A DNA stretch of 64,000 nt from the NCBI GenBank assembly GCA_963803805.1, contig CAWDOD010000003.1, forward strand, positions 384,001-448,000, in the 5' to 3' direction. Position 1 is the first letter of the stretch. Each line of letters starts with the position of its first letter. Below, in pieces: positions 13,934 through 40,576 of the stretch. The notes under the pieces were generated by a model. The model ran no database searches, had not been told where the DNA came from, and saw nothing but the letters and a program-made list of their open reading frames with translations. The stretch is from an uncultured cyanobacterium (GTDB taxonomy: Bacteria > Cyanobacteriota > Cyanobacteriia > Cyanobacteriales > CAWCAG01). The translations under genes were made by a program, and so were the position numbers.

Positions 13934-15229
13934 TTAGAAAATAAATCCTAACTTTAACTGCCAAGTTTGCCCTTCACTACGAATAATCTCAATTTTTTGT
14001 AGAAATTCACGAAAATAAAACCTTCGTTCTGCTTCGGATAAATCTAACCAAAATTGAGGTAAAGAAACAGCTTGGGCGATCGCTTGTAAATTAACAGGGG
14101 GAAGTTGAGCTAATTTGGTTTTGATTTGAGCTATTTCTTGATTCAATTTATAGCGGCGCAAAGCAGCAGTTTCTTGATCTAGAATTCCTTGTTCTTCCAA
14201 GGTAGGTAACTGAAGCAAAATTCCTTCTTTTGTTTGGATATCTGCTTGGCAAGTTTGTTTAATAACTTCTAAATTAGGGCCTTGCATCTGTGCCACAGCC
14301 AAAGGTAGATCCTGACAAATACGCTCAATGGTTTGTTGAAGAACTTTTTGATAAGAGATTGCTTTGCATTTCGGTTTTTGAGGACAATTAATCGGCCGTA
14401 GATAAAGGTATTTGTATTTTTTATTCCTGGTTTTCACTTGAGTAATTGTCATTGCTGAGTTGCATTGGTGACAAACCACTAAACCCGCCAAAGAACGAGG
14501 CGCACTAGCTGTACGAGGTGCAATAAGGCTATTACGGCGCAACAAACGGTCAATTTGAGCAGCTTCTTCGGAGGAGATAATCGGTATATGGGTGTTGGTA
14601 ATAACTTCACCATTTTTATAAGCTAAATTACCGCGATAAACTGGATTAGTTAACCAACGTTTTCCTGTAGTGACAGAAATTTTCTTACCATATTTATTTT
14701 CTAAATACCTTACTGCTCCTCGCAAAGAACCGTAGATCAAAAAACGTTCAAAAAACTCTTTCACCACCGGGGCAGTACTACGATCAACAATATAACGGTC
14801 TTTGCCGCGACGATAGCCGTAGGGGGCTTTTCCTGGAGGAGGTAAAGCTTTAAGACGGTTACGGGCATGGCCTTGACGTAGACGATGACAATTTTGATTC
14901 TTAGCAACCTCTGTGGCGAGTTGCCATAAATTCCCTTGTGGTTCCCTTTCTAGAGAACTATAGGGCTGTTCTGTAGCGATAACTTCAATATCTAACTCTG
15001 CCAACTTTGTTAAGCGATCGCTCACCTCTTGTAAAGATGCCCCTAATTCTTCTAAGCGGCGAATGAGAAGATATTCCGGGGGGTCATCTTGGCAATCGAG
15101 AACCATCTGTCTAAGCTGTTGTCTCTCTCCTAAGTCTTGATAAACTCTATCCACCTCCAAGCCCCATATTTCTGGCTCTGGGGAAGATTCTAACAAAGGA
15201 TCGCTATAGATATAAGCGAATATTTTCAT
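13934..15229 (-). CDS. Large serine recombinase family protein with degenerate catalytic domain
   Basis: Resolvase-like N-terminus, GKAPYGY, LTNPVYRG, HIPIIS recombinase domain, LAGLVVCHQC zinc ribbon, coiled coil. Confidence 0.85.
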   Translation of the reverse strand: MKIFAYIYSDPLLESSPEPEIWGLEVDRVYQDLGERQQLRQMVLDCQDDPPEYLLIRRLEELGASLQEVSDRLTKLAELDIEVIATEQPYSSLEREPQGNLWQLATEVAKNQNCHRLRQGHARNRLKALPPPGKAPYGYRRGKDRYIVDRSTAPVVKEFFERFLIYGSLRGAVRYLENKYGKKISVTTGKRWLTNPVYRGNLAYKNGEVITNTHIPIISSEEAAQIDRLLRRNSLIAPRTASAPRSLAGLVVCHQCNSAMTITQVKTRNKKYKYLYLRPINCPQKPKCKAISYQKVLQQTIERICQDLPLAVAQMQGPNLEVIKQTCQADIQTKEGILLQLPTLEEQGILDQETAALRRYKLNQEIAQIKTKLAQLPPVNLQAIAQAVSLPQFWLDLSEAERRFYFREFLQKIEIIRSEGQTWQLKLGFIF

Positions 15230-22702: not shown

Positions 22703-24103
22703 TCATTGATTAACTGACTCTGGTTCTGGGGAATCAAACTCTTTGATAAAATCAATAGCTGTGCTTAAAGAGGGTACTTTCCCTCCTTCAGTGACTCCAT
22801 TCGCCTTAACAGGTTCTTCTTGGGCGACAGAACCCCTTAACCAACGTTTGCCAAAGTGGGGATGGCGATAAAGATCCATTTTCTGGGAACTAGAGTTGGT
22901 AAGAATTATATGGGTAGGAGCTTGAAAAAAACTAGCGCTTTGGGCTAATAGTGAGTCTAGTCGGTGTACTTTAACTGATTTCAAAGTTCTGATAACCTGA
23001 ATTAAAGTTTTGCTTAGTTGCTGCATACCTTGGCGCTTTTTTTGATTAACTTGCTCAGGGTTATGAGATTGTAAGTTGTGGACGATGCCAATTAAATTGT
23101 GTCGAGCAGCGATCGCATCGCTAAAGGGAAAAACGGCTAGATAAGCAATAGTAAATAGTTGATCGTTGCTATCAACCCGAAATTTTAAAGTGGTTTTACG
23201 CCCTTTAAGTTCAATGGTGGGGGGATGACTTAAACCCGGATAAACCAAGGAAATTTGTCGATAGATTGCGGCTAAGGCGAGATTAGCATCAAAATCCAAA
23301 TGAGCGTCAATATTAATTTGAACTGTGGGTAAAGTTTCTTCAAAGAAACTATGAATTGTTTCTGGGGTGAATTTATGAATTTGAGAGCGATCGCCCCCAG
23401 AACTTAAATCAACCCATTCACAGACTAAACTTTCGGTTTTCAGCCCAAAACGGGAAGCCCCATAAAGCTTGGCTCCGGTTAAAGTGGCCCCTGTCAAGTC
23501 AGCACCAATCCAATCTGCTTCCATTAAATTAGCTTGGGTAAGATTGGCATGAACTAAACTGGTGTTGCGTAAGTTAGCATTGCTCAAGTTTGCTCCCACC
23601 AAATTGGCCCCACTCAACTTAGCCCCTTGCAAATCTGCCCAACTTAAATCTGCTCCTTGTAAATCTGCCCAGCGTAAATTAGCCCCTCTGAGGTCAGAAC
23701 CACTTAGTTTCGCTCGATTCAAAGCTGTTTGGCGCAATTCTGCCCCTCTGAGGTTAGTAGAGATTAATTCGCTACGACGTAGGTTGGCTCCATTGAGGTT
23801 AGCCTTTTCTAAATTAGCGCGATTGAGACAAGCCCCTTGAAGATTGGCTTGGCTTAAGCTACTATAGCTCAGGTTGGCATCGGATAAATCTGCACTATTG
23901 CTAATTCTGGCCACATTGAGTTGAGCATAGCTGAGGTTAGCACGCTTTAAAATCGCTCCGCTTAAGTTAGCAGCATTTAAGTTAGCTTGGGTTAGATTTG
24001 CACCACTGAGGTTTATGCTGCTCAAGTTCGCCTCTCTGAGGTCAACGGCGGTAAAATCCCTGATACCAGAAGTATATCTCTTCGTAAGTTCTGTAACTCT
24101 CAT
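22703..24103 (-). CDS. Pentapeptide repeat protein with C-terminal domain
   Basis: About 200 aa of A(N/D)LxX repeats after a YTSGIRDF cap. Confidence 0.92.
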   Translation of the reverse strand: MRVTELTKRYTSGIRDFTAVDLREANLSSINLSGANLTQANLNAANLSGAILKRANLSYAQLNVARISNSADLSDANLSYSSLSQANLQGACLNRANLEKANLNGANLRRSELISTNLRGAELRQTALNRAKLSGSDLRGANLRWADLQGADLSWADLQGAKLSGANLVGANLSNANLRNTSLVHANLTQANLMEADWIGADLTGATLTGAKLYGASRFGLKTESLVCEWVDLSSGGDRSQIHKFTPETIHSFFEETLPTVQINIDAHLDFDANLALAAIYRQISLVYPGLSHPPTIELKGRKTTLKFRVDSNDQLFTIAYLAVFPFSDAIAARHNLIGIVHNLQSHNPEQVNQKKRQGMQQLSKTLIQVIRTLKSVKVHRLDSLLAQSASFFQAPTHIILTNSSSQKMDLYRHPHFGKRWLRGSVAQEEPVKANGVTEGGKVPSLSTAIDFIKEFDSPEPESVNQ

Positions 24104-25390: not shown

Positions 25391-26044
25391 GTGAGAATCT
25401 CTACTTTTACACTATCAATTAAAAAAGCTATTCCTGTTAATAAAGCCAGCAAAGATAACCAAAAAATGGTAGCCGGCTACTTTTTAAGTATATCTAACTT
25501 AGCCAACCGAGATTTCAGACTAAGAATTGAGTTTACTTTAACCCAACTAAGTTTGCCTTCTGAACAAGCTAATTTTGAAGGGAAAGCTATTTTGGCCTGT
25601 GATTTAACAGGAAACATTACTTATCTTTCTTTAAATCAATCTCCTACCAACAAAAATAAGTATAGTAGTTATTTTACGATTCCTGCTAAAGAAACAATTT
25701 CTATTGAGCTACTTCCTGAACTCAGCAATAACCTACCCAATTACAACGGTGATTTAGAAGCAAGTGGCTTTGTATCTTTGTTATTGCCAGCTAATCTCAA
25801 TTTCTCAACTCGTCGCGTAGAGTCCCAAAGTCAAACTCCGGTGGAGTTCATCTTACATCCAGAAATACGCAGCGCAGTTATTCAAACTGATGAAGCTATC
25901 AAAAGTCCGGCTCATCTTAACTTTAACAAAGTGGTTTCTACCCTATCAACTACAAATGAGAACCCCTTAGTTTGTTTGGAACCAGAACCCGGTTATCCCC
26001 TCTTTTTTGAGCCAGATATTATTGCTAATATTTCTTTACCTTAG
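25391..26044 (+). CDS. Hypothetical protein
   Basis: 217-aa ORF, GTG start after GAGG; beta-rich (GYFLSISNL); no recognised family. Confidence 0.6.
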   Translation: MRISTFTLSIKKAIPVNKASKDNQKMVAGYFLSISNLANRDFRLRIEFTLTQLSLPSEQANFEGKAILACDLTGNITYLSLNQSPTNKNKYSSYFTIPAKETISIELLPELSNNLPNYNGDLEASGFVSLLLPANLNFSTRRVESQSQTPVEFILHPEIRSAVIQTDEAIKSPAHLNFNKVVSTLSTTNENPLVCLEPEPGYPLFFEPDIIANISLP

Positions 26045-26146: not shown

Positions 26147-26632
26147 TTAAACAAGAATAGTAAACTCAAGTACATCATAATCATTACCCCGGAGTACAGA
26201 CTCAGTTTGTTTGCCTCTAAGTCGCTTGTTTAAAAAAGCTTCCAATATTCCTTGAATAGCTCCTAAAGTATAAGTACATTGGCGAGAAGAACCTTCTTCT
26301 TCAGCAAAAGAACAAACGGTTTCTTTCGCATAAACTTTGTATACTCCTCCTTCAACAATTATTTCATCAACAATGCAAAGACGAGTCCCTTCTTTACCTA
26401 AAGCCTTGTTTACTAATAATTGAATATCTGCCAGACTTTTTTCTTGTTCTTGATCTACTAAACCTAGTTCTTTGGCTAAAGTTTTACCCCTTTGGCGACC
26501 GGCAGAAATCATGGCGATCGCCGCGGCTTTTGCTCCTAATGCTTCTTCAACACCAGTGATAATTGCTTTGAGGCAAACTACGCTACTAAAATGGCCTAAT
26601 TCTTTTCTTAATGATTTTTGAGCGACGGACAT
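26147..26632 (-). CDS. V4R-like (hydrocarbon-binding) domain protein
   Basis: AGRQRGKTLA helix, ETVCS and CTYTLGAIQGILE motifs; GAGG RBS. Confidence 0.72.
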   Translation of the reverse strand: MSVAQKSLRKELGHFSSVVCLKAIITGVEEALGAKAAAIAMISAGRQRGKTLAKELGLVDQEQEKSLADIQLLVNKALGKEGTRLCIVDEIIVEGGVYKVYAKETVCSFAEEEGSSRQCTYTLGAIQGILEAFLNKRLRGKQTESVLRGNDYDVLEFTILV

Positions 26633-26685
26633 ATTATTTCCTCTTCAATTGTTGAGTTTGCTGGTATTTTGGTAGTAAGCTATAA

Positions 26686-27540
26686 CTAAACTTTGTTACG
26701 TAAAAAGCCTACTAAGTTATTCAAAAAAGATTCACTAATATCTTGAGTTGAGTCTGTTTTAGCCACCGCTGATTGCATTGCTTCTACTTGAGAATTTTGG
26801 ACTGTGTTATCTAGGGATAGCAGAGGTAATTCTTCTACTAAACCTACTACGATTAAGCGAAAAGCAATTTGCTGTACCTGGGCAATACTTAGCTTAAGCT
26901 GTTGGCTTATTTCCTTTAAGGAGGTAGCGCCATCAGTAAATTCCCAAACCTGCCATTCTAGTTGGTTAATACGGACTTTAGGCTTACCTTCAATTTGGCT
27001 GAACAAAGCTGAAGTAGATTCAGGGAGTTTATCTTGGAGATTTGACCAATCTTTGAGGGCCCGTAAACCGGCTAAGGTAACTTCTGTAGCTGGGGTACTT
27101 AAACCTGTCATTTCTGCCCAAGGTAAGGACGCTTGGTTATCAAACTCAAAGTTACCGTTGGCATAGGTAAATAAAGCGCAAACTTGGCGCAAAACCTGTA
27201 CAGAAAAGAGAATTTTTAACTGTTCTGGTTGCAATATTCCTTGGGATTTAAGCTGCAAACCTAAAGGAATATCCGCAGATAAATTTTGACTTAGTTGAGA
27301 AGCTATCTCCTTGTTTAACCAACCACGTTTATGAATTGAAGAAAGCAAACCGTTACCATCCAAACGGTTAGCAGCACCCATAATACGACCTTGACGGAAC
27401 CAAACATAGTGACTTTGGATGACTCCTGACTCAAAGTTTGGTAGGGCGCGAATAGTTAGCAGTCCTGTTTTGTTACCTCTATCGAGAAACTGAAACAACT
27501 CTGCTAAGGAAAATTCTGATAAATATCCAGTAATAGCCAT
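26686..27540 (-). CDS. DUF4388/PATAN-domain protein with C-terminal wHTH-like segment
   Basis: GYLSEFSLAELFQFL...KTGLLTI; EWQVWEFTDG..SLKEISQQL..FRLIVVGLVEE. Confidence 0.85.
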   Translation of the reverse strand: MAITGYLSEFSLAELFQFLDRGNKTGLLTIRALPNFESGVIQSHYVWFRQGRIMGAANRLDGNGLLSSIHKRGWLNKEIASQLSQNLSADIPLGLQLKSQGILQPEQLKILFSVQVLRQVCALFTYANGNFEFDNQASLPWAEMTGLSTPATEVTLAGLRALKDWSNLQDKLPESTSALFSQIEGKPKVRINQLEWQVWEFTDGATSLKEISQQLKLSIAQVQQIAFRLIVVGLVEELPLLSLDNTVQNSQVEAMQSAVAKTDSTQDISESFLNNLVGFLRNKV

Positions 27541-27551
27541 GATCTTTCTAA

Positions 27552-28091
27552 CTACACCAAGGTTTTTTGCCTCAACTGCTGTACTAAAGCAATTATTGCT
27601 TGTGCTACCGAAGCAGCCTCATTAGCATTGACTTTGATTATGGGTGGGCGTTGACTTTCTTCTGGCAATCCCAAAGCAACAGCAATATTATCTTCTTGCC
27701 ATGCCCCTTGACAGTCACTATGGGTAATACCGATAATCATCGGGACTTGAGTGCGTTGATTCATGAAACTCATGATTCGCCGGGCATAACGAAATTCATT
27801 AGGACGATGGGCAGCTACTAAAAGAATATAAGCATGGGCTTTTTGAATGAGAATATCCCACATAAAGTTAAATCTTGCTTGTCCAGGTGTACCGTAAAGA
27901 TGCAGTGCCATATCTAGCCCAAACTGCAACCGACCAAAGTCAAAAGCGACAGTGGTTTGAGGTTTGATACTGGTGGTTTCGTCAGTAGCTTTTCTATCGG
28001 TATCTACTACTTCAATCTCACTAACAGAACGAATGAAGCTAGATTTTCCCGCTCCTACAGGCCCTGTAACGACCAAGCGCATTATTTCCAT
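27552..28091 (-). CDS. MglA/CvnD-like small GTPase
   Basis: G1 GPVGAGKS, G2 TTVAFDFG, G3 YGTPGQARF, atypical G4 THSD. ATG at 28091 preferred over the TTG at 28118. Confidence 0.88.
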   Translation of the reverse strand: MEIMRLVVTGPVGAGKSSFIRSVSEIEVVDTDRKATDETTSIKPQTTVAFDFGRLQFGLDMALHLYGTPGQARFNFMWDILIQKAHAYILLVAAHRPNEFRYARRIMSFMNQRTQVPMIIGITHSDCQGAWQEDNIAVALGLPEESQRPPIIKVNANEAASVAQAIIALVQQLRQKTLV

Positions 28092-28136
28092 GAGTTTGTT
28101 GGCGTAGGCAGTTATCAATTAATTAATGATTGACCC

Positions 28137-28508
28137 TTACATTAAGGCTGGTTTTATTTCGGTAATTGCTCGCTTGATTTCTAGCATTAGTACCCCTTGT
28201 TTAGCAGCTTTGTTGGCTAGGACTAAGAAAACTGCATCTTCGCCACAACTAGTTAAGATGCCGTAGCCGGCATCTCCTTCAACATAGATTCTGTCCACCA
28301 CACCTCGATGTAGTTCACTGGAGATTCTTTCACCTAATGACAGCATTGCCGCAGACATAGCGGAAACCCTTTCTTCATCCATGCTGCCCGGTAAAATTGT
28401 TGCTAAGGGTAAGCCATCGGGGGTTACTAAGGCTGCACCAACAACATCGTTGGTGGCAGTGACAAAGTTTTGAATAATACTGCCTAATTTTTCTGTATTA
28501 ATTGCCAT
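28137..28508 (-). CDS. Roadblock/LC7 (MglB-like) protein
   Basis: GAALVTPDGLPLA, EERVSAMSAAMLSLG and VEGDAGY motifs. Confidence 0.92.
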   Translation of the reverse strand: MAINTEKLGSIIQNFVTATNDVVGAALVTPDGLPLATILPGSMDEERVSAMSAAMLSLGERISSELHRGVVDRIYVEGDAGYGILTSCGEDAVFLVLANKAAKQGVLMLEIKRAITEIKPALM

Positions 28509-29021
28509 AATTTTTCCCTTTTCTTCTTTGAAGTGAGACGCTAAGGTTTGAGAACTAAAGTTTAGGAAGAGAAGGAGTATTTTAATTCTATTCCAGAAAA
28601 GTTTGTTTGTAAAAACTCTTCTGAAATTCGATTTTTTCTAGCTGGTAAATCTGGAGATAATAACATGAACAAACCTCTTCTTTTGTACTATTTATTTTTC
28701 GTAGACCCTGAAAGCTAGTTTGAACGAATTAATTTGCTGGCTTCAACACATTTATTGGTTACATAACAAATTATTTTCTCTTTAACAAAAGGAAAAGTAA
28801 TGGTAGAAGCCTTGTTTTTTATGGTAATCTGGACTTCAGATAATATCAAGCTTATAAGCTTGATATTCCTTTTCTCTATTGTCTAACTATATACTTGAGA
28901 TATCCTACAGCGTTATTACTTATTTTCCGGAATGATATAAAAAGATTGCTTAATATAAGCAAAAGATAACCTTTAAGTGTCTTCTTTCTTACATTTACTG
29001 GTTAAAATGATTGTTTCAATA

Positions 29022-29750
29022 TCAGTTAGTAATAATTGAGTGCATCCCTAGAAAAATAAGGCATGGATTTACAAGTAATTTTTCTTTTAATGTAGGAAAC
29101 TGAGCTTTTAAATAAGTTGATAGCAATTCGCCCTCACCTCCAGTAAAAATAATCTGGCTGTGAGGAAATTTCTGCTGCCAATCCTGAATAAAATCGTAGA
29201 TGCCTGCTGTAAGAACATGAATAATACCACTAGCGATCGCCTCAGTTGTTTGTCGCGCCCACTTTGGTGGTATTTGGTTCGGTAATTGGATTTGAGGTAG
29301 GGCAGGAGTTTGTTGCTGCAAGGCTTTTAATTGTAGGCTTAACCCTGGTAAAATTGCGCCGCCGAGTAGTTCCCCTTTAGGGTTTGCACCGGTAAAAGTC
29401 AAGGCTGTTCCTCCATCAATAACTAAGATAGGAAAACCATAAATACAACCAGCCCCCCACAAAGCCAAGGCACGATCTAAGCCTAGGGTGGGATACATTC
29501 CCGAAAGAGGAACATCTTTTAAGGTAAGGAGTTTTTTGGGTTGATAGTGTTGCCACAAGTCCGTTTGAGGCGTAACCACAGAAGCGATGTATAAAGGTAG
29601 GGCAGCTAATTCTTCTGGCAATTGATTCTTCTCTACAGGTTGTTGTAGATGGGGAGTATGCCAGATTTGGTGTAAAGTGTTGTTTTTAAATAAAGCCCAA
29701 TGTAGTCTTGAGTTGCCAATGGCTAGGGCTAACCATTTATCATTTATCAT
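29022..29750 (-). CDS. coaX: Type III pantothenate kinase
   Basis: IGNSR, LGLDR, IDGGTALT, GGAILPG and TGG motifs. Confidence 0.92.
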   Translation of the reverse strand: MINDKWLALAIGNSRLHWALFKNNTLHQIWHTPHLQQPVEKNQLPEELAALPLYIASVVTPQTDLWQHYQPKKLLTLKDVPLSGMYPTLGLDRALALWGAGCIYGFPILVIDGGTALTFTGANPKGELLGGAILPGLSLQLKALQQQTPALPQIQLPNQIPPKWARQTTEAIASGIIHVLTAGIYDFIQDWQQKFPHSQIIFTGGEGELLSTYLKAQFPTLKEKLLVNPCLIFLGMHSIITN

Positions 29751-32217: not shown

Positions 32218-35200
32218 ATGTTAACAAATAATAGTCAAGTCAAGTTACTTCTTTCTACTGCTGAATTTAGTGATAGCAATTTCTTGAAGAGTTTATTGTC
32301 AGAAAAAGGATATGAAGTACGAACGTTGGCTGCCGGAGAAACAGTTCTTCAAACTGTCAGACAGTTTTTACCAGACTTGATTTTACTAGCTACTAATTTA
32401 GCTCCTCTCAATGGTTATGAAATTTGTCTTAAGTTAAAAGACAACATGAATACTGCTCAGATTCCAGTAATATTTTTATTAGATGAGCAACAACAAAAGC
32501 AACGGGGTAAATGTTTCCAAGTTGGTTGTGCTGATGTTGTTGCTAAACCTTGGCAAATAGAAGAAATTACTGCTCGAATTAACCATCAAGTTACTATTCA
32601 AAACCTTAAGCAAGAATTAATAGAAGAACATCAAGCTAGAGAGAAAATTGAAAAAGAGGTTAATACAAGCATTCAAGAATTATTTAGTGAAGTTGTTGAC
32701 AAAAATTTACTTCAAGAGAAATTAAGCAATTCTGAAGCAGAAATGCAGGTTTTCTTTGAGGCGATGACGGATATAATTTTAGTTGCTGAAGCTGATGCTA
32801 GAAGTGTTAGAGTTATTCCTACTCGTAATAGTCTGGGAAAACAAGAGCAAATAGAGATTATTGATTTAACTATCAAGCAATTTTTTCCTGGTGCGGGAGA
32901 ACCGATTTTTTGGTCGCAAGTTGAAAAAGCTATTAAAAAGCAAGAGAAAGTTGATTTTGAATATAGCCTATGTTTACGAGGAAAAGATATTTGGTTTGCT
33001 GCTAGTATTGCTCCTATTACTAATTTAGAAACGGAAGCAGTTATTTGGGTTGCTCGTAATATAACTGAACAAAAGCAAGCTGAATTAGCTCTACAAAAAC
33101 TAGCTCATGATTTGGAATCAAGGGTTGATAACAGAACGAAAGAACTTCACAAAGCCAACAAAACTCTAAAACAAGAAATGGGCTTTCGTGAAGTAACGAA
33201 AATAGCTTTAGAGGATAGTGAACGTCGTTTCCGAGCTATATTTAATAATGTTTTTCAGTTTATTGGTTTATTATTACCTGATGGGACGGTTTTAGAAGCT
33301 AATCAAACTGCCTTGAATTTTGCAGGTATTAAACATGAAGATATTGTCGGCAAGCCCTTTTGGGAAGCGAAGTGGTGGACTATTTCTTCTGCTACCCAAG
33401 CAAGACTGAAAAAGGCGATCTCCCTAGCAGCAAAAGGAGGTTTTGTACGTTATGAAGTGGAAGTTTTAGGTAAAGAAGACAGAATTGCTACTATTGATTT
33501 TTCTCTGAAGCCTGTCCGTAATAAACAGGGGCAAGTAATATTATTGATTCCGGAAGGATGGGATATAACTGCACGGAAAGAAACTGAACAGGAATTACAA
33601 TGGCGTTCTCAAAGAGATAGTTTACTCAGAGATATTTCCCGAACTTTTCTTAATGGGGCAGTTTATGAAGCTATTGAATTCACTTTAAAAACAGTAGGCA
33701 AATTTCTTGGGGGCGATCGCTGTTCTCTTATTCATCTTGATAAAACTAAAGGAGATTTTTCCCTAACTCAGCAATGGTGTCGCCAAGGAGTTAAGTCCTC
33801 TTTTCAATACTATCAAGGAGTTAAGTTAGAGGACTATCTTCGGTTATACCAACAGTTTATTGAAAAAGATATTATTGAAATTCCTTTAGTTGCAGCAATG
33901 CCCCCAGAGGCCAAACAAGAGCAAAATGATTTGCAAAAACACGCAATTCAATCTTTGCTAATTGTACCAATGAATGATGCAGGAGAAGCGGTAGGATTTA
34001 TTTGCTTAGATGCGGTTTATTCTCCTCAAATTTGGAATCAGAAACAAAAAGATTTTCTTAGATTTGTTGGGGAGTTAATTGTTATTGCCCAAGAACGTTA
34101 TAAAGCCAAAAAACAACTCAAAGAATCTCAACAAAGACTTTCTTTTTTGATTGAGCAAACTCCTTTGGCTGTGATTGAATGGTCAACAGATAAGAAACTT
34201 TTAACTTGGAATCAGGGGGCAGAAAAAGTATTTGGTTATACTGCCGCAGAAGCTATCGGTAAAGGGACAGAATTATTAGTTCCTGAAAGGGTTGCTCAAG
34301 AAGTTAATCAGGTAATTGACAACATTATTGAGCAACAGGGAGGAACTCATAGCATTAATAAAAACATTACTAAAGATGGTCGTATTATTACTTGTGAGTG
34401 GTTTAATACACCACTGCTAGATGAAAGTGGTTCAGTTATTGCCTTAGCTTCTATTGCTATGGATATAACCGAACGTAAGCAGAGAGAATGGTTGCGGAAT
34501 ACTCGCAGTCAGGTTTTGTCGATGCTGGCTTTTGGGTTGCCATTGCCGGAAGTTTTACTTGAGTTGGTGATGCAGGTAGAAAGACAGATGCCGGAATTGT
34601 CTTGTTCTATTTTGCTCAAAGTTCCTGAAAGCAACTGTTTACGTCCCTATGTTAGTGCAAATATTCCTGAAGCTTGGAATAAGCTGATTGACTCTTTACC
34701 TATCGCTCCTCATACTGGGGCTTGTGGGAGAGCAGCTTATTTAGGGAAGCGGGTTATAGTAGAGGATATGAGCCAAGATCCTTTGGTTGCTCCTTGGCGA
34801 GAACAAGCTGCCCAGTGTAAGTTACAAGCTTGTTGGTCTGAACCCATTAAATCAGAACAAGGGGACATTTTGGGAACCTTTGCCCTCTATTTCAAGCAAC
34901 CGCAATCCCCTAAACAACTGGAGATAGAAGTCATTGAATCCTTAGCTCAACTAGCAGCTTTGGTGATTCTACGTAAACAAGCAGAAGCAGCTTTGCAAGA
35001 GTCTAAGGAAGTTGCTGAGGCTGCAAACCGAACCAAAAGCGACTTTTTAGCGAAGATGAGCCACGAGTTGCGCACTCCCCTTAATGCCATCCTTGGCTTC
35101 AGTCAGTTGATGACTCGTGATCCGTCTTTGAGTTCACGACAACTAGAACATTTAAGTATTATTAATCGTAGCGGAGAACATCTCCTCACCTTAATTAATG

Positions 35201-36426
35201 ATGTTTTGTCTATGGCCAAAATTGAAGCTGGCAAGGTGGCATTGCAAGAAAATAGCTTTGATTTATCTATCTGCCTCAATTCTTTAGAGAAAATGTTGCA
35301 ACTTAAAGCTCAGGGCAAAGGTTTGCAGCTTCACTTTGAATACCATGATAATTTACCCCAGTTTGTTAAAGCAGATGAAAGTAAATTGCGTCAGGTTTTG
35401 CTTAATTTACTCGGCAATGCCATCAAGTTCACTCAAGCTGGGGAAGTTAGGTTACAGATTAACCAAGTATTGAGTGAAGACAGTACTAATTGCATCTTAG
35501 CTTTTGATGTAACTGATAGCGGTGCAGGCATTGCCTCAGAAGAACTAGACCAATTGTTTGACCCCTTTTCTCAAACCGATTCAGGGCGCAAAGCCATGAT
35601 GGGAACTGGTTTAGGTTTGCCAATTAGTCAGCAGTTTGTAGCTTTGATGGGTGGAGAAATAAAAGTTATTAGCAAGGTGGGGCAGGGCAGTAGTTTTAGC
35701 TTTGCCATTCCGGTTCAAGTTGTGCCACAGCTTGAACAGACGAAGGAAGCCCAACCTCAAAAGGTGGTTGGTTTGCAGTCTGAACAGGAAGAGTATCGCA
35801 TTTTGATAATTGAAGATGTGTTAGAAAATCGCCAATTAGTTAAAGAAATTCTCCAACCCCTTGGTTTTCAAGTGCAAGGGGCAGAAAATGGGCAAGAAGG
35901 TTTAGTGACTTGGGAAAGTTGGCAACCTCAGTTAATCCTGATGGATATGGCTATGCCAGTTATGAACGGTTATGAAACTACAAAAAGGATTAAAGAAACT
36001 CCTCAAGGCGAACAAACAACAATAATTGCTCTGACTGCCAGCGCTTTTGAAGAACAAAGAGCCGAGATTTTGTTAGTAGGTTGTGATGACTTCTTGCGCA
36101 AACCCTTTAAAGAATATATATTGTTAAGAAAGATTAAGAAATTTTTAGGAGTTGAATATATTTATGAGGAAAATGATTGCTTAATTGAAGAAAATCATAG
36201 TAGTACCTTACTTCCTCTCAAGGCTGAAGATTTAAACTCAATGCCCAAAGAATGGCTAGAAAATTTATATTTGGCAGCCCTATCTATAGATCATCAACAA
36301 GTGATGGATTTAATCGAAAAAATTCCAGAAAAGGAGGCTAATTTAGCTCTGACCTTAACTAATTTAGTTGAAAATTTTCGTGTGGATTTAATTGTTAATT
36401 GTATAGAAGAAGGGAATAGTCAATAG
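32218..36426 (+). CDS. Hybrid sensor histidine kinase: pseudo-REC, PAS, PAS, GAF, PAS, GAF, HisKA, HATPase, REC
   Basis: MSHELRTPLN H-box, NLLGNAIKF, GTGLGL, C-terminal ILMDMAMP receiver; the N-terminal receiver has LILLA in place of LILLD. Confidence 0.92.
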   Translation: MLTNNSQVKLLLSTAEFSDSNFLKSLLSEKGYEVRTLAAGETVLQTVRQFLPDLILLATNLAPLNGYEICLKLKDNMNTAQIPVIFLLDEQQQKQRGKCFQVGCADVVAKPWQIEEITARINHQVTIQNLKQELIEEHQAREKIEKEVNTSIQELFSEVVDKNLLQEKLSNSEAEMQVFFEAMTDIILVAEADARSVRVIPTRNSLGKQEQIEIIDLTIKQFFPGAGEPIFWSQVEKAIKKQEKVDFEYSLCLRGKDIWFAASIAPITNLETEAVIWVARNITEQKQAELALQKLAHDLESRVDNRTKELHKANKTLKQEMGFREVTKIALEDSERRFRAIFNNVFQFIGLLLPDGTVLEANQTALNFAGIKHEDIVGKPFWEAKWWTISSATQARLKKAISLAAKGGFVRYEVEVLGKEDRIATIDFSLKPVRNKQGQVILLIPEGWDITARKETEQELQWRSQRDSLLRDISRTFLNGAVYEAIEFTLKTVGKFLGGDRCSLIHLDKTKGDFSLTQQWCRQGVKSSFQYYQGVKLEDYLRLYQQFIEKDIIEIPLVAAMPPEAKQEQNDLQKHAIQSLLIVPMNDAGEAVGFICLDAVYSPQIWNQKQKDFLRFVGELIVIAQERYKAKKQLKESQQRLSFLIEQTPLAVIEWSTDKKLLTWNQGAEKVFGYTAAEAIGKGTELLVPERVAQEVNQVIDNIIEQQGGTHSINKNITKDGRIITCEWFNTPLLDESGSVIALASIAMDITERKQREWLRNTRSQVLSMLAFGLPLPEVLLELVMQVERQMPELSCSILLKVPESNCLRPYVSANIPEAWNKLIDSLPIAPHTGACGRAAYLGKRVIVEDMSQDPLVAPWREQAAQCKLQACWSEPIKSEQGDILGTFALYFKQPQSPKQLEIEVIESLAQLAALVILRKQAEAALQESKEVAEAANRTKSDFLAKMSHELRTPLNAILGFSQLMTRDPSLSSRQLEHLSIINRSGEHLLTLINDVLSMAKIEAGKVALQENSFDLSICLNSLEKMLQLKAQGKGLQLHFEYHDNLPQFVKADESKLRQVLLNLLGNAIKFTQAGEVRLQINQVLSEDSTNCILAFDVTDSGAGIASEELDQLFDPFSQTDSGRKAMMGTGLGLPISQQFVALMGGEIKVISKVGQGSSFSFAIPVQVVPQLEQTKEAQPQKVVGLQSEQEEYRILIIEDVLENRQLVKEILQPLGFQVQGAENGQEGLVTWESWQPQLILMDMAMPVMNGYETTKRIKETPQGEQTTIIALTASAFEEQRAEILLVGCDDFLRKPFKEYILLRKIKKFLGVEYIYEENDCLIEENHSSTLLPLKAEDLNSMPKEWLENLYLAALSIDHQQVMDLIEKIPEKEANLALTLTNLVENFRVDLIVNCIEEGNSQ

Positions 36427-36529
36427 TCACTCTTTTCTAAGAAAGCTCAACCCACAAAAAATCCAAAAACCTATTCTGTAAAAAAACCACTTCCTATTGA
36501 AAGATGGACTATTCTCTATTTTTTAAAAA

Positions 36530-39490
36530 ATGCTTAAAGAAAATTACATTCTGCCCCAAGATGTTGATTTAACCAACTGCGATCGCGAGGCAATTCATAT
36601 ACCAGGACAAATTCAACCCCACGGTGTTCTTTTAGTGCTTGAAGAACCTAGTTTAAGGATTTTACAAGCAAGTAGCAATACAGAGCAGCTTTGGGGTATT
36701 ACTGCTCAATCTTTAATTGGTCAATATTTAGATTTTTTACTAATTGCAGAAGATCTAAGTAATTTAAAATCCTCTTTGAAAGAGGATAATATAGAAGTCT
36801 ATAATCCTTGGCTTTTGAAGCTAGAGTTAGGCAAGAAACATTTTGCTTATGAAAGTTCTCTACATCGCTATCAGGGAGCTTTGATTTTAGAATTAGAACC
36901 TTTGACTTTATATAACAGAAAATCTGCTTCGGGTTTTTATCAGTTAGTTAAAACAGCTTTAGCTACTATTAGACAGGCAAATAACCTTTCTGAAGCCACA
37001 GAACTTTTAGCCCAAGAAGTAAAAAAAATAACTGGCTATGATCGAGTCATGGTTTATCGCTTTGAACCTGATGATAGCGGGGTAGTAGTAGCAGAAGATA
37101 AAAAAGCAGGATTAGAACCCTATTTACATTTACATTACCCTGCTTCCGATATTCCTAAGCAAGCAAGAAAGCTTTATTATGAAAATTGGTTACGCTTAAT
37201 TGTTGATGTTAGCTACGAACCAGCTAATATTATTCCTGCCCATAATCCTCTTACTAGTGAGCCTTTAGATTTAAGCCGTTCTGTGTTAAGGAGTGTCTCT
37301 CCTTTGCATAGAGAATATTTACAAAATATGGGAGTTTATTCTTCCTGTAGCATTTCTTTGATTAATGAACAAAAACTCTGGGGTTTGATTGCTTGTCATC
37401 ACTATACCCCGAAATATGTAGATTATGAAACCAGAAAAGCTTGTGAGTTTATTGGGCAATTAATGTCTGCTGCTTTGGTAAAGAAGCAACAGGAAGATTT
37501 CCTGGTTTATCAACAGCAGATTAAATCACTGCAACAAAAGTTCCGAAAAATCACCACCAATAAAAATAATTCTCAGCATGAAATATTAACTGCTAGCGAT
37601 CAGAGTTTATTAGAGCTAGTTGATGCCAAAGGGGCAGCTATTTTATTAGAGGGAAAATTAACTTTATTAGGGCAAACTCCCAGCCGAGAACAAGTTAGTA
37701 ATTTGATTACTTGGTTGAAAGAATCTTCTCGCCCAGAAATGTTTTTTACTAATCACCTCAGTCAAGATTATCCCCCAGCCACAGCTTTTGTAGAACAAGC
37801 TTGTGGTTTACTCGCCATTTCTTTATCTGTCAAGCAAATTTCCTATCATGTTCTTTGGTTTCGCCCCCAATATATTCAAATAGTGAACTGGGCAGGAAAC
37901 CCCAAAAAATCTGTAACTATTGATGAACAGGGGGGCATAAATTTACTGCCCCGTAAATCTTTTGCCTTGTGGACAGAAACAGTTAAAAATAAGTCTTTAC
38001 CTTGGCAGCAAATCGAACTTGATGCAGCCCAAGAATTTAGAAACACCTTACTTCTAGCGGCATTACAATCTTCTCAAGAAGCATTAGAAAAAACTGCTCA
38101 AGAAGCAGAAATTGCCAATAAGGCTAAGACTCAATTCTTAGCAAAAATGAGTCACGAATTACGTACTCCCCTCAACGCAATTCTGGGCTTTAGCCAAGTA
38201 ATGAATAAAAACGATACTTTATCTGTTAAACAAAGAGAGCATTTAGGAATTATTAATCGTAGTGGGGAGCATTTATTAACCCTCATTGATGATGTTTTAA
38301 ATATGTCTAAAATCGAAGCTGGTGGAGTCATCCTCAATGAACATGGCTTTGATTTATTTAAAGTACTAAACTCTTTGGAGGAAATGCTCAAATTCAAAGC
38401 TAACGCTAAGGGATTGCAACTTGAATTTCAACTAGCTGCAAACTTACCTCAATATGTTTACAGCGACGAAAGCAAACTACGTCAGGTTTTGCTTAACTTA
38501 TTAGGCAATGCTATCAAATTTACCCCCCAAGGAAAAGTTACCTTACAAGTAAATAATATCTCTCACCAAAAAAGTTCTGATCTACTTTTATCATTTTCCG
38601 TCGCTGATACAGGTTTGGGCATCGCCCCAGAAGAGTTGAATAAATTATTTGATCCTTTTGTACAAACAGAAACAGGGCGTAAGTCAATGGAGGGGACAGG
38701 TTTAGGAGTTTCTATTAGTAAACAATTTGTTAGTTTATTGGGGGGAGAACTCAAAGTTAGTAGTGTGGTAGGAGAAGGTAGTACTTTTTCCTTTGAGATT
38801 CCTGTTCAAGAAGTTCCTGAAACTGAGGTAGAAACTACTGAAAGTAAAAGAGTAATTGGTTTAGCCCCAGGGCAACCTCAATATCGCATTTTAGTTGTCG
38901 AAGATGTTTCGGAAAACCTCCAACTCATTGTAGAAATTCTAAAACCTTTGGGCTTTCAGCTTCGCAAAGCTAAAAATGGCCAAGAAGGAGTGAATTTGTG
39001 GCAAATTTGGCAACCTCAGCTAATTTTAATGGATATGGAAATGCCTATCATGAATGGCTACGAAGCCACCAAAGACATCAAAAATACCCCAACAGATAAA
39101 GAAACAATTATCATTGCCCTCACTGCCAGCGCTTTTGAGGAACAAAGGGCAGAAATTTTAGCTGCCGGGTGTGATGACTTTTTGCGTAAACCTTTCCGAG
39201 AAAGCCTTTTGTTAGAGAAGATCAGCCATCATTTGGGGGTACGCTATATATACGCTGAAACAAATCAACAAAGTAGCCCAACCCAAAACCTAACCCCCGA
39301 AGCCCTACAAGTCATGCCACAACAGTGGCGAGAAGAATTGCGCTTAGCAGCCCTTTCTATGGATGAAGAACAACTTTGGCAATTGATTAAGAAGATTCCC
39401 CCGTCAGAAGCTAATCTTGTAGAGAGCTTAACAGAATTGATTAACAACTTCCGGTTAGATATAATAGCGGAATCTACTGAATTAGGGTAA
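36530..39490 (+). CDS. Bacteriophytochrome-type (CphB/AphB-like) PAS-GAF-PHY hybrid histidine kinase
   Basis: LTNCDREAIHIPGQIQPHG, YDRVMVYRF, PASDIP, RSVSPLH and PRKSF tongue; HisKA, HATPase and REC domains. Confidence 0.93.
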   Translation: MLKENYILPQDVDLTNCDREAIHIPGQIQPHGVLLVLEEPSLRILQASSNTEQLWGITAQSLIGQYLDFLLIAEDLSNLKSSLKEDNIEVYNPWLLKLELGKKHFAYESSLHRYQGALILELEPLTLYNRKSASGFYQLVKTALATIRQANNLSEATELLAQEVKKITGYDRVMVYRFEPDDSGVVVAEDKKAGLEPYLHLHYPASDIPKQARKLYYENWLRLIVDVSYEPANIIPAHNPLTSEPLDLSRSVLRSVSPLHREYLQNMGVYSSCSISLINEQKLWGLIACHHYTPKYVDYETRKACEFIGQLMSAALVKKQQEDFLVYQQQIKSLQQKFRKITTNKNNSQHEILTASDQSLLELVDAKGAAILLEGKLTLLGQTPSREQVSNLITWLKESSRPEMFFTNHLSQDYPPATAFVEQACGLLAISLSVKQISYHVLWFRPQYIQIVNWAGNPKKSVTIDEQGGINLLPRKSFALWTETVKNKSLPWQQIELDAAQEFRNTLLLAALQSSQEALEKTAQEAEIANKAKTQFLAKMSHELRTPLNAILGFSQVMNKNDTLSVKQREHLGIINRSGEHLLTLIDDVLNMSKIEAGGVILNEHGFDLFKVLNSLEEMLKFKANAKGLQLEFQLAANLPQYVYSDESKLRQVLLNLLGNAIKFTPQGKVTLQVNNISHQKSSDLLLSFSVADTGLGIAPEELNKLFDPFVQTETGRKSMEGTGLGVSISKQFVSLLGGELKVSSVVGEGSTFSFEIPVQEVPETEVETTESKRVIGLAPGQPQYRILVVEDVSENLQLIVEILKPLGFQLRKAKNGQEGVNLWQIWQPQLILMDMEMPIMNGYEATKDIKNTPTDKETIIIALTASAFEEQRAEILAAGCDDFLRKPFRESLLLEKISHHLGVRYIYAETNQQSSPTQNLTPEALQVMPQQWREELRLAALSMDEEQLWQLIKKIPPSEANLVESLTELINNFRLDIIAESTELG

Positions 39491-39544
39491 AACGCATCAC
39501 CATAAAAAAACCCAAAAATACTGGTATAAATACAGTGAAGCTGC

Positions 39545-40576
39545 ATGAACAATTCTAATCCAGCAAACCAAAAAGAAAGCATCTTAATTGTGGATGATAA
39601 GCCTGATAACTTAAGGCTTTTATCAACAATGTTAGAGGCTCAAGGATACAAAGTTAAAAAAGCCCTTGATGGTAATTTTGCGATTAAAGGAGCGCAGATT
39701 GCTCCTCCTGATTTAATTTTGCTGGATATAAATATGCCAGTCATAAATGGCTACCAAGTATGTAAAGAATTAAAGAAGCAGCCCAAAACCAGTCAAATAC
39801 CGATTATTTTTATAAGCGCCCTTGATCGCCCCCTCGATCAAGTCAAAGCTTTTAAAATTGGTGGAGCAGATTATATTACTAAACCGTTTCATTTAGAAGA
39901 AGTATTAGCAAGAGTTGAAAATCAGTTAAACCAACAAAGATTAGCGCAAAAATTGCAGGCACAAAACCTAATTTTAGAGAAAGAAATAGAGGGGCGTTTA
40001 CGGACAGAAGAAGCCTTGATTGCAGCAAATAGAGAACTAGAACGCCTTGCTAATTTAGATGGCTTAACAGAAATTTCTAATCGCCGTAGCTTTGATATTG
40101 CTCTCAATTTAGAATGGCAAAGACATTTGCATAAAAGTTTGCCTCTTTCTTTAATTTTGTGTGACGTAGACTATTTCAAAGCTTATAACGATACCTACGG
40201 ACATTTGCGAGGAGATGATTGTTTACGGCAAGTAGCTAATTGCCTCCGTCTAGTAGTAGAAAAAGCCGACATTCCTTGGGCAAGGGCTGCTCGTTATGGG
40301 GGAGAAGAGTTTGCTGTTATTCTTCCTAATACAAAAATTCAACAAGCTATGGAAATAGCAGCACAAATACAAATTGAATTAGCCAACTTAAAAATTCCTC
40401 ATATTCGCTCTCAAGCAAGCCAGTTTGTTACCCTAAGTCTTGGTGTAACAACGATTATTCCCCAAGCTAGCTTAACAACTAAGAATTTAATAGATATGAC
40501 TGACTGTGCGCTTTATGAAGCAAAAAAAAGAGGCAGAAATCGTATTTTCTCCGAGCAACTAATAGCAATTGGCTAA
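39545..40576 (+). CDS. Response-regulator diguanylate cyclase (REC-GGDEF)
   Basis: ILIVDD and LILLDINMP receiver; DGLT, DVDYFKAYND and ARYGGEEF. Confidence 0.94.
   Translation: MNNSNPANQKESILIVDDKPDNLRLLSTMLEAQGYKVKKALDGNFAIKGAQIAPPDLILLDINMPVINGYQVCKELKKQPKTSQIPIIFISALDRPLDQVKAFKIGGADYITKPFHLEEVLARVENQLNQQRLAQKLQAQNLILEKEIEGRLRTEEALIAANRELERLANLDGLTEISNRRSFDIALNLEWQRHLHKSLPLSLILCDVDYFKAYNDTYGHLRGDDCLRQVANCLRLVVEKADIPWARAARYGGEEFAVILPNTKIQQAMEIAAQIQIELANLKIPHIRSQASQFVTLSLGVTTIIPQASLTTKNLIDMTDCALYEAKKRGRNRIFSEQLIAIG

Follow-up and report, generated by a model that had tools for sequence, protein, structure and literature searches.

We describe here a compact operon in a 64,000-nucleotide (nt) stretch of DNA from an uncultured cyanobacterium (hereafter the window, meaning that whole stretch), in which four minus-strand genes—all co-oriented between positions 26147 and 28508 in the list of open reading frames (ORFs)—encode a Roadblock protein, an MglA-family small GTPase, a PATAN (DUF4388) protein and a divergent member of the V4R fold. 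Our analysis points, with about even confidence, to a kinase-less, sensor-fed switch of the MglA type, in which an input from V4R or protoglobin proteins would be received via Roadblock and the PATAN protein would be the adaptor that hands the output on, probably to the motor of the type IV pilus. Across cyanobacteria, the stable core of this module is the Roadblock–GTPase–PATAN trio, and the slot beside the Roadblock gene is occupied by a protoglobin, by a V4R-like protein or by the two together. The features of the operon and its upstream spacer are the following.

28509..29021 (−): upstream spacer, 513 nt, AT-rich; presumed promoter region
28137..28508 (−): Roadblock/LC7 protein (MglB-like), 123 amino acids (aa), by Pfam PF03259; presumed GTPase regulator, acting as GTPase-activating protein (GAP) and/or guanine-nucleotide exchange factor (GEF)
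27552..28118 (−): MglA-family small GTPase of the Groups 2–5 type, 188 aa when read from the TTG at 28118
26686..27540 (−): PATAN (DUF4388) plus winged-helix protein, 284 aa, by Pfam and structural model; presumed output adaptor
26147..26632 (−): divergent stand-alone V4R-fold protein, 161 aa, by structural model; presumed sensor of a ligand or of redox state, coupled to Roadblock

Conservation and linkage of the module across cyanobacteria

A scan of species-representative genomes with the V4R-like protein returned 407 relatives, from which 78 cyanobacterial loci containing 102 V4R-like genes were kept; the resulting survey of V4R–Roadblock linkage covers cyanobacteria, and the genomes in it are related. 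A Roadblock gene was located ≤400 nt from 86 of the 102 V4R-like genes—downstream of 76 and upstream of 16, with some V4R-like genes flanked on both sides—and all 323 matches to the four proteins in these loci fell on the V4R strand. Among the 42 loci with a length of 11 kb or more, all four genes were present in 21, V4R, Roadblock and GTPase in 16, V4R and Roadblock in three, and V4R alone in two. The cluster lies far beyond chance, given how many cyanobacteria carry these genes grouped and in a single orientation. That the four genes co-occur in other genomes, a condition that an initial annotation made from the sequence of the window had set for its reading, was borne out by this locus survey and also by a sample of 301 cyanobacterial genomes, in which the V4R-like gene was detected in 25 genomes and the GTPase gene in 36, with 23 genomes carrying both as against ~3 expected under independence. 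Two genomes harbored the V4R-like gene only (one of them with just broken fragments), and 13 the GTPase only. As a unit, the four-gene operon recurs, but neither its gene set nor its order is fixed: PATAN was present in 27 of the 78 V4R loci, the commonest order was V4R–Roadblock–GTPase–PATAN (16 loci), and the order found in the window, with the V4R gene last, is rare, being shared by one of the 78 loci (L089) and by a sister genome of the same genus (G001), the proteins of which are 79–91% identical to those of the window.

Clustering of the ORFs surrounding the module revealed that 37 of the 78 V4R loci also encode a protoglobin (PF11563, E = 1.5e-21), in the orientation of the module. Protoglobins constitute a family of heme sensors. 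Among the 13 GTPase loci without a V4R gene, ten featured a protoglobin adjoining the Roadblock–GTPase–PATAN genes (one of these ten matches being weak, at 30% identity), and the remaining three comprised a bare trio, a GTPase gene alone and a locus cut by a contig end. The sharing of one operon slot by protoglobin and V4R favors a sensor role for the V4R-like protein over a role as a GEF. The protoglobins adjoining Roadblock–GTPase–PATAN where V4R is lacking (L092–L102, e.g., L092:5028-5579) are stand-alone genes, and in many other loci the protoglobin adjoins V4R.

V4R-like and Roadblock genes were, in addition, found to multiply together. Three Coleofasciculus loci (L014, L021 and L028) contain tandem arrays of four to five V4R–Roadblock pairs, all on one strand, with one or two GTPase genes only and no PATAN gene. 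For 21 pairs from six closely related loci, the V4R–Roadblock mirror-tree gave a correlation of r = 0.825, as compared with a mean r of 0.03 when partners were shuffled within loci (0/2000 shuffles reached the observed value). The two genes of a pair thus diverge in step, and these data show the V4R–Roadblock pair to be the unit of duplication; the mirror-tree does not prove contact between the two proteins. In one genome (G319), stop codons interrupt both the V4R and the GTPase matches, which suggests that the module decays as a whole. V4R-like genes with stop codons were seen in some further genomes besides G319 (G060, G035 and G038).

Tandem arrays of up to five V4R–Roadblock pairs are also compatible with a role of the module in conflict or defense, with the pairs as diversified sensors of invaders and a STAND NTPase as their partner. 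A protein of ~650 aa combining NB-ARC and TPR domains (STAND-type) does come after the module at 22 of the 78 loci (e.g., L051:5462-7420), on the module strand in 21 of the 22, and some V4R, MglA and MglB-like proteins have been placed in predicted immune systems according to a 2026 preprint (10.64898/2026.10.19.760177). We nevertheless hold this explanation to be highly improbable. A PADLOC search yielded no credible match, with nothing for Roadblock or V4R at E ≤ 0.01 and one marginal hit each for the GTPase (E = 0.0046) and PATAN (E = 0.0071), and no effector domain accompanies the module; the Roadblock family displays a mean column identity of 78% over 29 cyanobacterial sequences, unlike fast-evolving immune sensors; and the copy in the window is single, sits among housekeeping genes and has no STAND neighbor, there being no counterpart of the NB-ARC and TPR ORF in the window.

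Locus architecture and upstream spacer

The initial annotation had described four co-oriented genes separated by short gaps behind an AT-rich upstream region, and the ORF list and the sequence itself confirmed each of these elements. The presence of the four families in an operon without a kinase gene held up as well, by Pfam scan and, in the case of V4R, by structural modeling. For the GTPase, an ATG at 28091 (179 aa) offers an alternative to the upstream TTG at 28118 (188 aa), and the ATG is the likelier start because orthologues align from residues 7–10 onward. The gap between the Roadblock and GTPase genes measures 45 nt with the ATG and 18 nt with the TTG, and the remaining gaps span 11 nt (GTPase–PATAN) and 53 nt (PATAN–V4R). 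The next gene upstream of the operon encodes a type III pantothenate kinase (29022–29750, −) and leaves a spacer of 513 nt before Roadblock, with a GC content of 0.28–0.32 vs ~0.40–0.46 in the genes. One sigma-70-like site was located in the spacer at 28613–28585 (−), such sites being no commoner than in shuffled sequences (9 observed, 7.7 expected), and the scan for promoters and terminators performed no better than on shuffled sequence. Searches of the spacer and operon returned no match in Rfam and no repeats. The role of the spacer as a promoter region is presumed.

In the genome under study as a whole, operon included, a single Roadblock gene, a single GTPase copy and one V4R-like gene were found, along with two DUF4388 genes and no protoglobin. 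The second DUF4388/PATAN gene (G000:C6:140486-141031, −) lies inside a 417-aa open frame and may encode a PatA-type regulator.

The divergent V4R-fold protein

The 161-aa protein scores below the Pfam gathering threshold for V4R (PF02830; 14.8 vs 31 bits, E = 0.031), and a Pfam V4R match was obtained for seven of 33 representatives of its family (best E = 1.3e-11). Structure prediction with AlphaFold2 gave a model with a mean predicted local distance difference test (pLDDT) score of 92 and a predicted template modeling (pTM) score of 0.87. When this model was compared with other structures using Foldseek, the V4R domains of PoxR, MopR and DmpR came first (E ~1e-6, template modeling (TM) score of 0.67–0.70), followed by Bet3/TRAPPC3 and Asgard TRAPPC3 (E = 2e-5 to 2e-4, TM ~0.6), H-NOX and BcsD. 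The top match of the family profile against the PDB was the V4R protein MJ1460 (E = 0.016). Judged by the predicted model, the V4R/Bet3-type fold of the 161-aa protein, with two alpha/beta layers, is not in doubt, and the fold assignment made in the initial annotation thus stands despite the Pfam miss. The family is small, with 96 representatives at 50% clustering, and its nearest clusters are mostly cyanobacterial.

Four Cys residues had been pointed out in this protein, and all four are present (C20, C86, C107 and C119), but they do not make up a conserved site: among the cyanobacterial V4R-like members, good conservation is limited to C86 (102/103) and C107 (95/103). A C-terminal Cys pair of the CxxxGxxxC type forms part of the Zn site of V4R proteins such as PoxR and of Thor-TRAPPC3 (PMC10933270). 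The 161-aa protein lacks this canonical pair, which is retained in distant members of the family (P0176, P0186, P0194 and P0196); a metagenome scan with a single distant relative carrying the canonical Cys residues recovered one marginal fragment (L091).

The Bet3-like features of the model call for a comparison with the TRAPP machinery, a parallel already raised in the initial annotation. Under such an explanation, the V4R/Bet3-fold protein would be a structural or catalytic subunit of an exchange factor instead of a sensor, working with Roadblock as Bet3 does with longin subunits. The matches to Bet3/TRAPPC3 of TRAPP–Rab complexes and to Asgard TRAPPC3, listed above, are compatible with it, as are the tight linkage of V4R with Roadblock, the duplication of the pair as a cassette, and the kinship of the Roadblock and longin folds, both of which act as platforms for GTPases (PMC3747258; PMC10933270). 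Yet the model is structurally closest to ligand-sensing V4R domains and not to Bet3, and a member of a sensor family—protoglobin—sits in the usual V4R slot in 10 of the 13 V4R-less loci. Furthermore, 13 of the 36 genomes with the GTPase lack a V4R gene, such that V4R is dispensable for the switch, and no fused V4R–Roadblock or V4R–GTPase protein, nor any longer V4R-like form, was found among proteins of 283–2000 aa, which is weak evidence. On balance, an exchange-factor role for the V4R-like protein is unlikely. Membership in TRAPP proper was rejected, as only the Bet3-like fold is present and its partner is Roadblock, not longin.

Roadblock and GTPase

The 123-aa protein matches Pfam Robl_LC7 (PF03259) with E = 4.4e-15 and 55.6 bits against a cut-off of 23, and its D31–G32 pair is invariant in 29/29 sequences. 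Such an Asp–Gly pair is a feature of MglB proteins coupled to MglA of Groups 2–5 (PMC4316618), and the Pfam score above the cut-off and the pair together identify the protein as a member of the Roadblock family. A profile of the family matched the solved structures 7f8m (E = 3e-32) and CvnB5 (3leq, E = 9e-15) far more strongly than Myxococcus MglB (6izw, E = 0.008). By analogy with MglB and CvnB, the Roadblock protein is presumed to regulate the GTPase. Prediction of a complex between the Roadblock and V4R-like proteins gave a score of 0.17 (mark, 0.32), which weighs neither for nor against binding.

For the GTPase, the best Pfam match was ATP_bind_1 (E = 5.6e-13), with Roc, Ras and Arf weaker and just above their own cut-offs; its closest solved relative is MglA (3t12, E = 0.0017). 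The translation contains the motifs GPVGAGKS, TTVAFDFG (G2), GTPGQ (G3) and THSD (G4). Across 74 cyanobacterial GTPase orthologues, the G1 P-loop GxxGxGK[ST] is conserved, the TT of G2 occurs in 73/74, and the GTPGQ of G3, including the catalytic Gln, in 73–74/74. In MglA Groups 2–5, Thr replaces the arginine finger of G2 and the G3 motif reads GTPGQ, whereas TVPGQ and, in G2, an intrinsic arginine finger characterize Group 1 MglA, represented by Myxococcus (PMC4316618). With a P-loop of the GxxxxGK[ST] type, Thr in place of the arginine finger and GTPGQ, the GTPase of the window conforms to Groups 2–5. The initial annotation had read G2 as conservon-type and G3 as MglA-type; the motifs themselves are there, but TT is common to Groups 2–5 and not specific to conservons, and GTPGQ likewise belongs to Groups 2–5 and not to Group 1 MglA. 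The same annotation had singled out THSD as a non-canonical G4, which is correct as to the motif but does not make it an oddity of this gene, as T-H-x-D is a family trait found in about 69–72 of the 74 orthologues (T in 72, H in 69, D in 72). The G4 of MglA Groups 1, 4 and 5 fits [NT]KxD (PMC4316618), a pattern from which THSD departs through the His that replaces Lys in 69/74 orthologues. An altered base specificity is a prediction that follows from THxD. A provisional Group 5 label for the GTPase therefore rests solely on taxonomy and on the MglB–MglA–PATAN neighborhood cataloged in Table S2 of that study.

The PATAN–winged-helix protein and its candidate target

Residues 4–166 of the 284-aa protein match Pfam DUF4388 (PF14332) with E = 7.1e-26 and 91.1 bits vs a cut-off of 25, alongside a weak match to HTH_47. 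In the AlphaFold2 model (pLDDT of 83), helices at 64–124 lie between strands at 3–57 and 129–134. PATAN domains reportedly carry just such an alpha-helical insertion, going by the title of a 2006 paper of Makarova and colleagues. The Pfam score above the cut-off and the helical insertion in the model identify the protein as a PATAN family member. According to the same model, residues 167–242 adopt a winged helix and residues 243–266 are disordered, with a terminal helix closing the chain. The whole model had no Foldseek match at E ≤ 0.001, and the matches of a wide VIA search were filled by the winged-helix part. When the winged helix was aligned with VIA-align, scaffold domains of GATOR1 and SEA subunits were the best matches (Z of 10.1 and 9.7, respectively; GATOR1 chain 8fw5_B, Z 10.1 over 73 residues), with many winged helix-turn-helix (wHTH) regulators, e.g., AsnC/Lrp and MarR, at Z ~6.

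These lower-ranking matches bear on the nature of the output. The resemblance of residues 167–242 to wHTH transcription factors (Z ~6) and the weak HTH_47 match would suit a DNA-binding regulator set by the GTPase, with gene expression—a developmental program, for instance—as the output in place of pilus polarity; Streptomyces conservons are described as regulators of development (PMC4316618), and no motility genes are found near the operon. However, the best matches of the winged helix are the protein-scaffold domains of GATOR1 and SEA rather than DNA binders, no DNA target is known, and the PATAN domains studied so far bind a pilus ATPase (PMC9090330; bioRxiv 10.1101/2021.06.11.447907), all of which makes a transcriptional output improbable. 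In particular, regulators of Synechocystis that combine PATAN with a receiver domain (PATAN-REC) bind PilB1 (PMC9090330; bioRxiv 10.1101/2021.06.11.447907), and MglA homologues sort pilus ATPases (bioRxiv 10.1101/2021.06.11.447907). Because of these two precedents, the pilus motor is, by analogy, the likeliest target of the PATAN protein. PilB and PilT homologues are both encoded in the genome under study.

A candidate sensor-fed switch

In myxobacteria, polarity and motility are under the control of small Ras-like GTPases that work with Roadblock partners. From the gene identities, folds, motifs, linkage and co-occurrence observed, we infer the following protein–protein contacts, ligand, direction of regulation and pilus output. 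The GTPase would cycle between GTP and GDP states, and Roadblock—probably a dimer, like MglB and CvnB—would set its state, acting as GAP, exchange factor or both. The V4R-fold protein would serve as the input sensor, responding to a small hydrophobic ligand or to redox state and acting on or through Roadblock, and in related cyanobacteria its operon slot is taken by protoglobin, either alone or with V4R. The PATAN–winged-helix protein would then read the GTPase state and relay it, most likely to the pilus extension ATPase PilB, and in this way surface motility would be controlled in its direction or activity. The initial annotation had proposed a GEF-like role as a second option for V4R, localization of the output by PATAN and an effect on pilus polarity, which all stand as hypotheses.

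Several observations weigh against this sensor-fed switch. On the input side, the canonical C-terminal Cys pair of V4R proteins is replaced by S145 and D153 (100/103 members each), so that metals and ligands may be bound differently than in PoxR and MopR. The V4R gene of the window stands at the 3′ end of the operon and does not adjoin Roadblock, such that the usual adjacency fails here, and the alternative sensor, protoglobin, is missing from this genome. On the output side, 51 of the 78 V4R loci, some of them short, yielded no PATAN match; the PilB and PilT genes are located on other contigs than the operon, and no pilus or taxis genes lie in the window within ~15 kb of it; and the PATAN proteins that bind PilB1 carry a receiver domain, whereas the operon PATAN carries a winged helix and could bind DNA instead. 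The genomes compared are kin, so the counts overstate independence, and both the physical interaction among the operon proteins and their co-transcription remain predictions.

A bolder version of the sensor-fed switch would treat the V4R/Bet3 fold, Roadblock and a Ras-like GTPase as one ancient bacterial unit, in which V4R sets the nucleotide state via Roadblock upon ligand binding, as a prokaryotic counterpart or possible forerunner of TRAPP and Ragulator that steers pilus movement by oxygen, redox or a hydrophobic metabolite; this extension we regard as decidedly unlikely. The gene context points to one conserved Roadblock–GTPase–PATAN core fed by two inputs of the sensor type, protoglobin and a divergent V4R protein. 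A testable idea derived from this arrangement is that the pilus motor of gliding cyanobacteria might be linked to the sensing of oxygen, redox or metabolites with no histidine kinase involved. The module is also a simple bacterial setting in which to ask if a Bet3-fold protein can regulate a small GTPase, a question that bears on the origin of eukaryotic TRAPP-like and Ragulator-like machinery.

Neighboring genes in the window

Immediately beyond the operon, a plus-strand ORF of 217 aa (25391–26044) is convergent with the V4R gene; it has no Pfam or NCBIfam match and is kept at the same place in the sister genome, with 74% identity. On the other side, a plus-strand signaling cluster (32218–40573) starts ~3.7 kb from the upstream end of the operon and encodes two histidine kinases, one a PAS/GAF hybrid of 1402 aa and the other of the phytochrome type with a receiver, as well as a receiver–GGDEF diguanylate cyclase. 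Farther away, an ORF at 13937–15229 (−) contains Recombinase and zinc-ribbon domains of the large serine recombinase type, with no resolvase catalytic domain in the Pfam list, and may be a mobile-element remnant. The gene at 22703–24103 (−) encodes a 466-aa pentapeptide-repeat protein with a long non-repeat C-terminal half, and pentapeptide proteins were also seen near the module in the loci L029, L064, L066 and L086, possibly by chance. MfpA, a pentapeptide protein, adjoins a mycobacterial conservon. The pentapeptide gene of the window was set aside as an MfpA-like partner, given that two plus-strand genes intervene between it and the operon and that such genes are abundant in cyanobacteria.

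Comparison with known systems

At the level of individual proteins, the V4R-like component shares its fold with the V4R domains of PoxR, MopR and DmpR and with Bet3/TRAPPC3 (Foldseek E of 1e-6 to 2e-4), at sequence identities of 11–16% to V4R/Bet3 proteins. It differs from PoxR, MopR and DmpR in being a stand-alone protein of 161 aa, without an AAA+ or DNA-binding output and with Ser and Asp in place of the Cys pair, and it differs from Bet3 in its partner, encoded in the same operon, which is Roadblock here and longin in TRAPP. The account of V4R and Bet3 by Podar et al. 2008 makes no mention of Roadblock or GTPases, and Asgard GTPase genes are described as not sharing, as a rule, an operon with Roadblock or TRAPPC3 genes (2024; PMC10933270). 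The published cyanobacterial V4R proteins, of the Slr0144 type and associated with globins and an Fe–S protein, belong to a different cluster.

The operon resembles the Streptomyces conservons (CvnA–D; MglA Group 2) in pairing a Roadblock protein, with its match to CvnB5, with an ATP_bind_1 GTPase whose G4 has no lysine. PATAN and V4R proteins stand here in place of the CvnA histidine kinase and CvnC (DUF742), and conservon membership was rejected, as no histidine-kinase or DUF742 domain was detected by Pfam in the four proteins or in the flanking ORFs. The MglA/MglB systems of Myxococcus xanthus and Thermus thermophilus (Group 1) likewise consist of a Ras-like GTPase with a Roadblock regulator and are linked to type IV pilus polarity, and MglA (3t12) is the best solved relative of the GTPase; Group 1, however, has TVPGQ and an arginine finger where the operon GTPase has GTPGQ and TT, and MglB matches the Roadblock profile only weakly. 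Partners of the RomR/RomX type were not seen, although no search was aimed at them.

The closest counterpart is cyanobacterial MglA Group 5. Table S2 of Wuichet and Sogaard-Andersen 2015 (PMC4316618) gives MglB, MglA and PATAN for each of its five cyanobacterial Group 5 loci; in one example, tlr1990 of Thermosynechococcus elongatus, the arrangement is MglB>MglA>PATAN>. Group 1 and Group 5 mglA genes are noted there as occasionally lying near PATAN genes, and Makarova et al. 2006 is cited for MglB–PATAN neighborhoods (PMC4316618). The operon in the window shares with Group 5 the same three families in the same order, a GTPase length of 179–188 aa, GTPGQ, the Thr of G2 and the Asp–Gly pair of MglB. 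It differs in its G4, THSD vs [NT]KxD, and in the presence of a V4R gene, of which there are 0 occurrences in Table S2. A full-text literature search that did not extend to subscription journals or bioRxiv supplements turned up neither a functional study nor any account of the link to V4R or protoglobin, in keeping with the view of the initial annotation that the operon has no functional characterization in cyanobacteria. Its broader description of the module as uncharacterized holds for the V4R partner, which seems unreported, but not for the trio, which is already cataloged as MglA Group 5 (PMC4316618). The Roadblock–GTPase–PATAN trio is thus a known but unstudied system, to which the V4R and protoglobin partners seem to be new additions.

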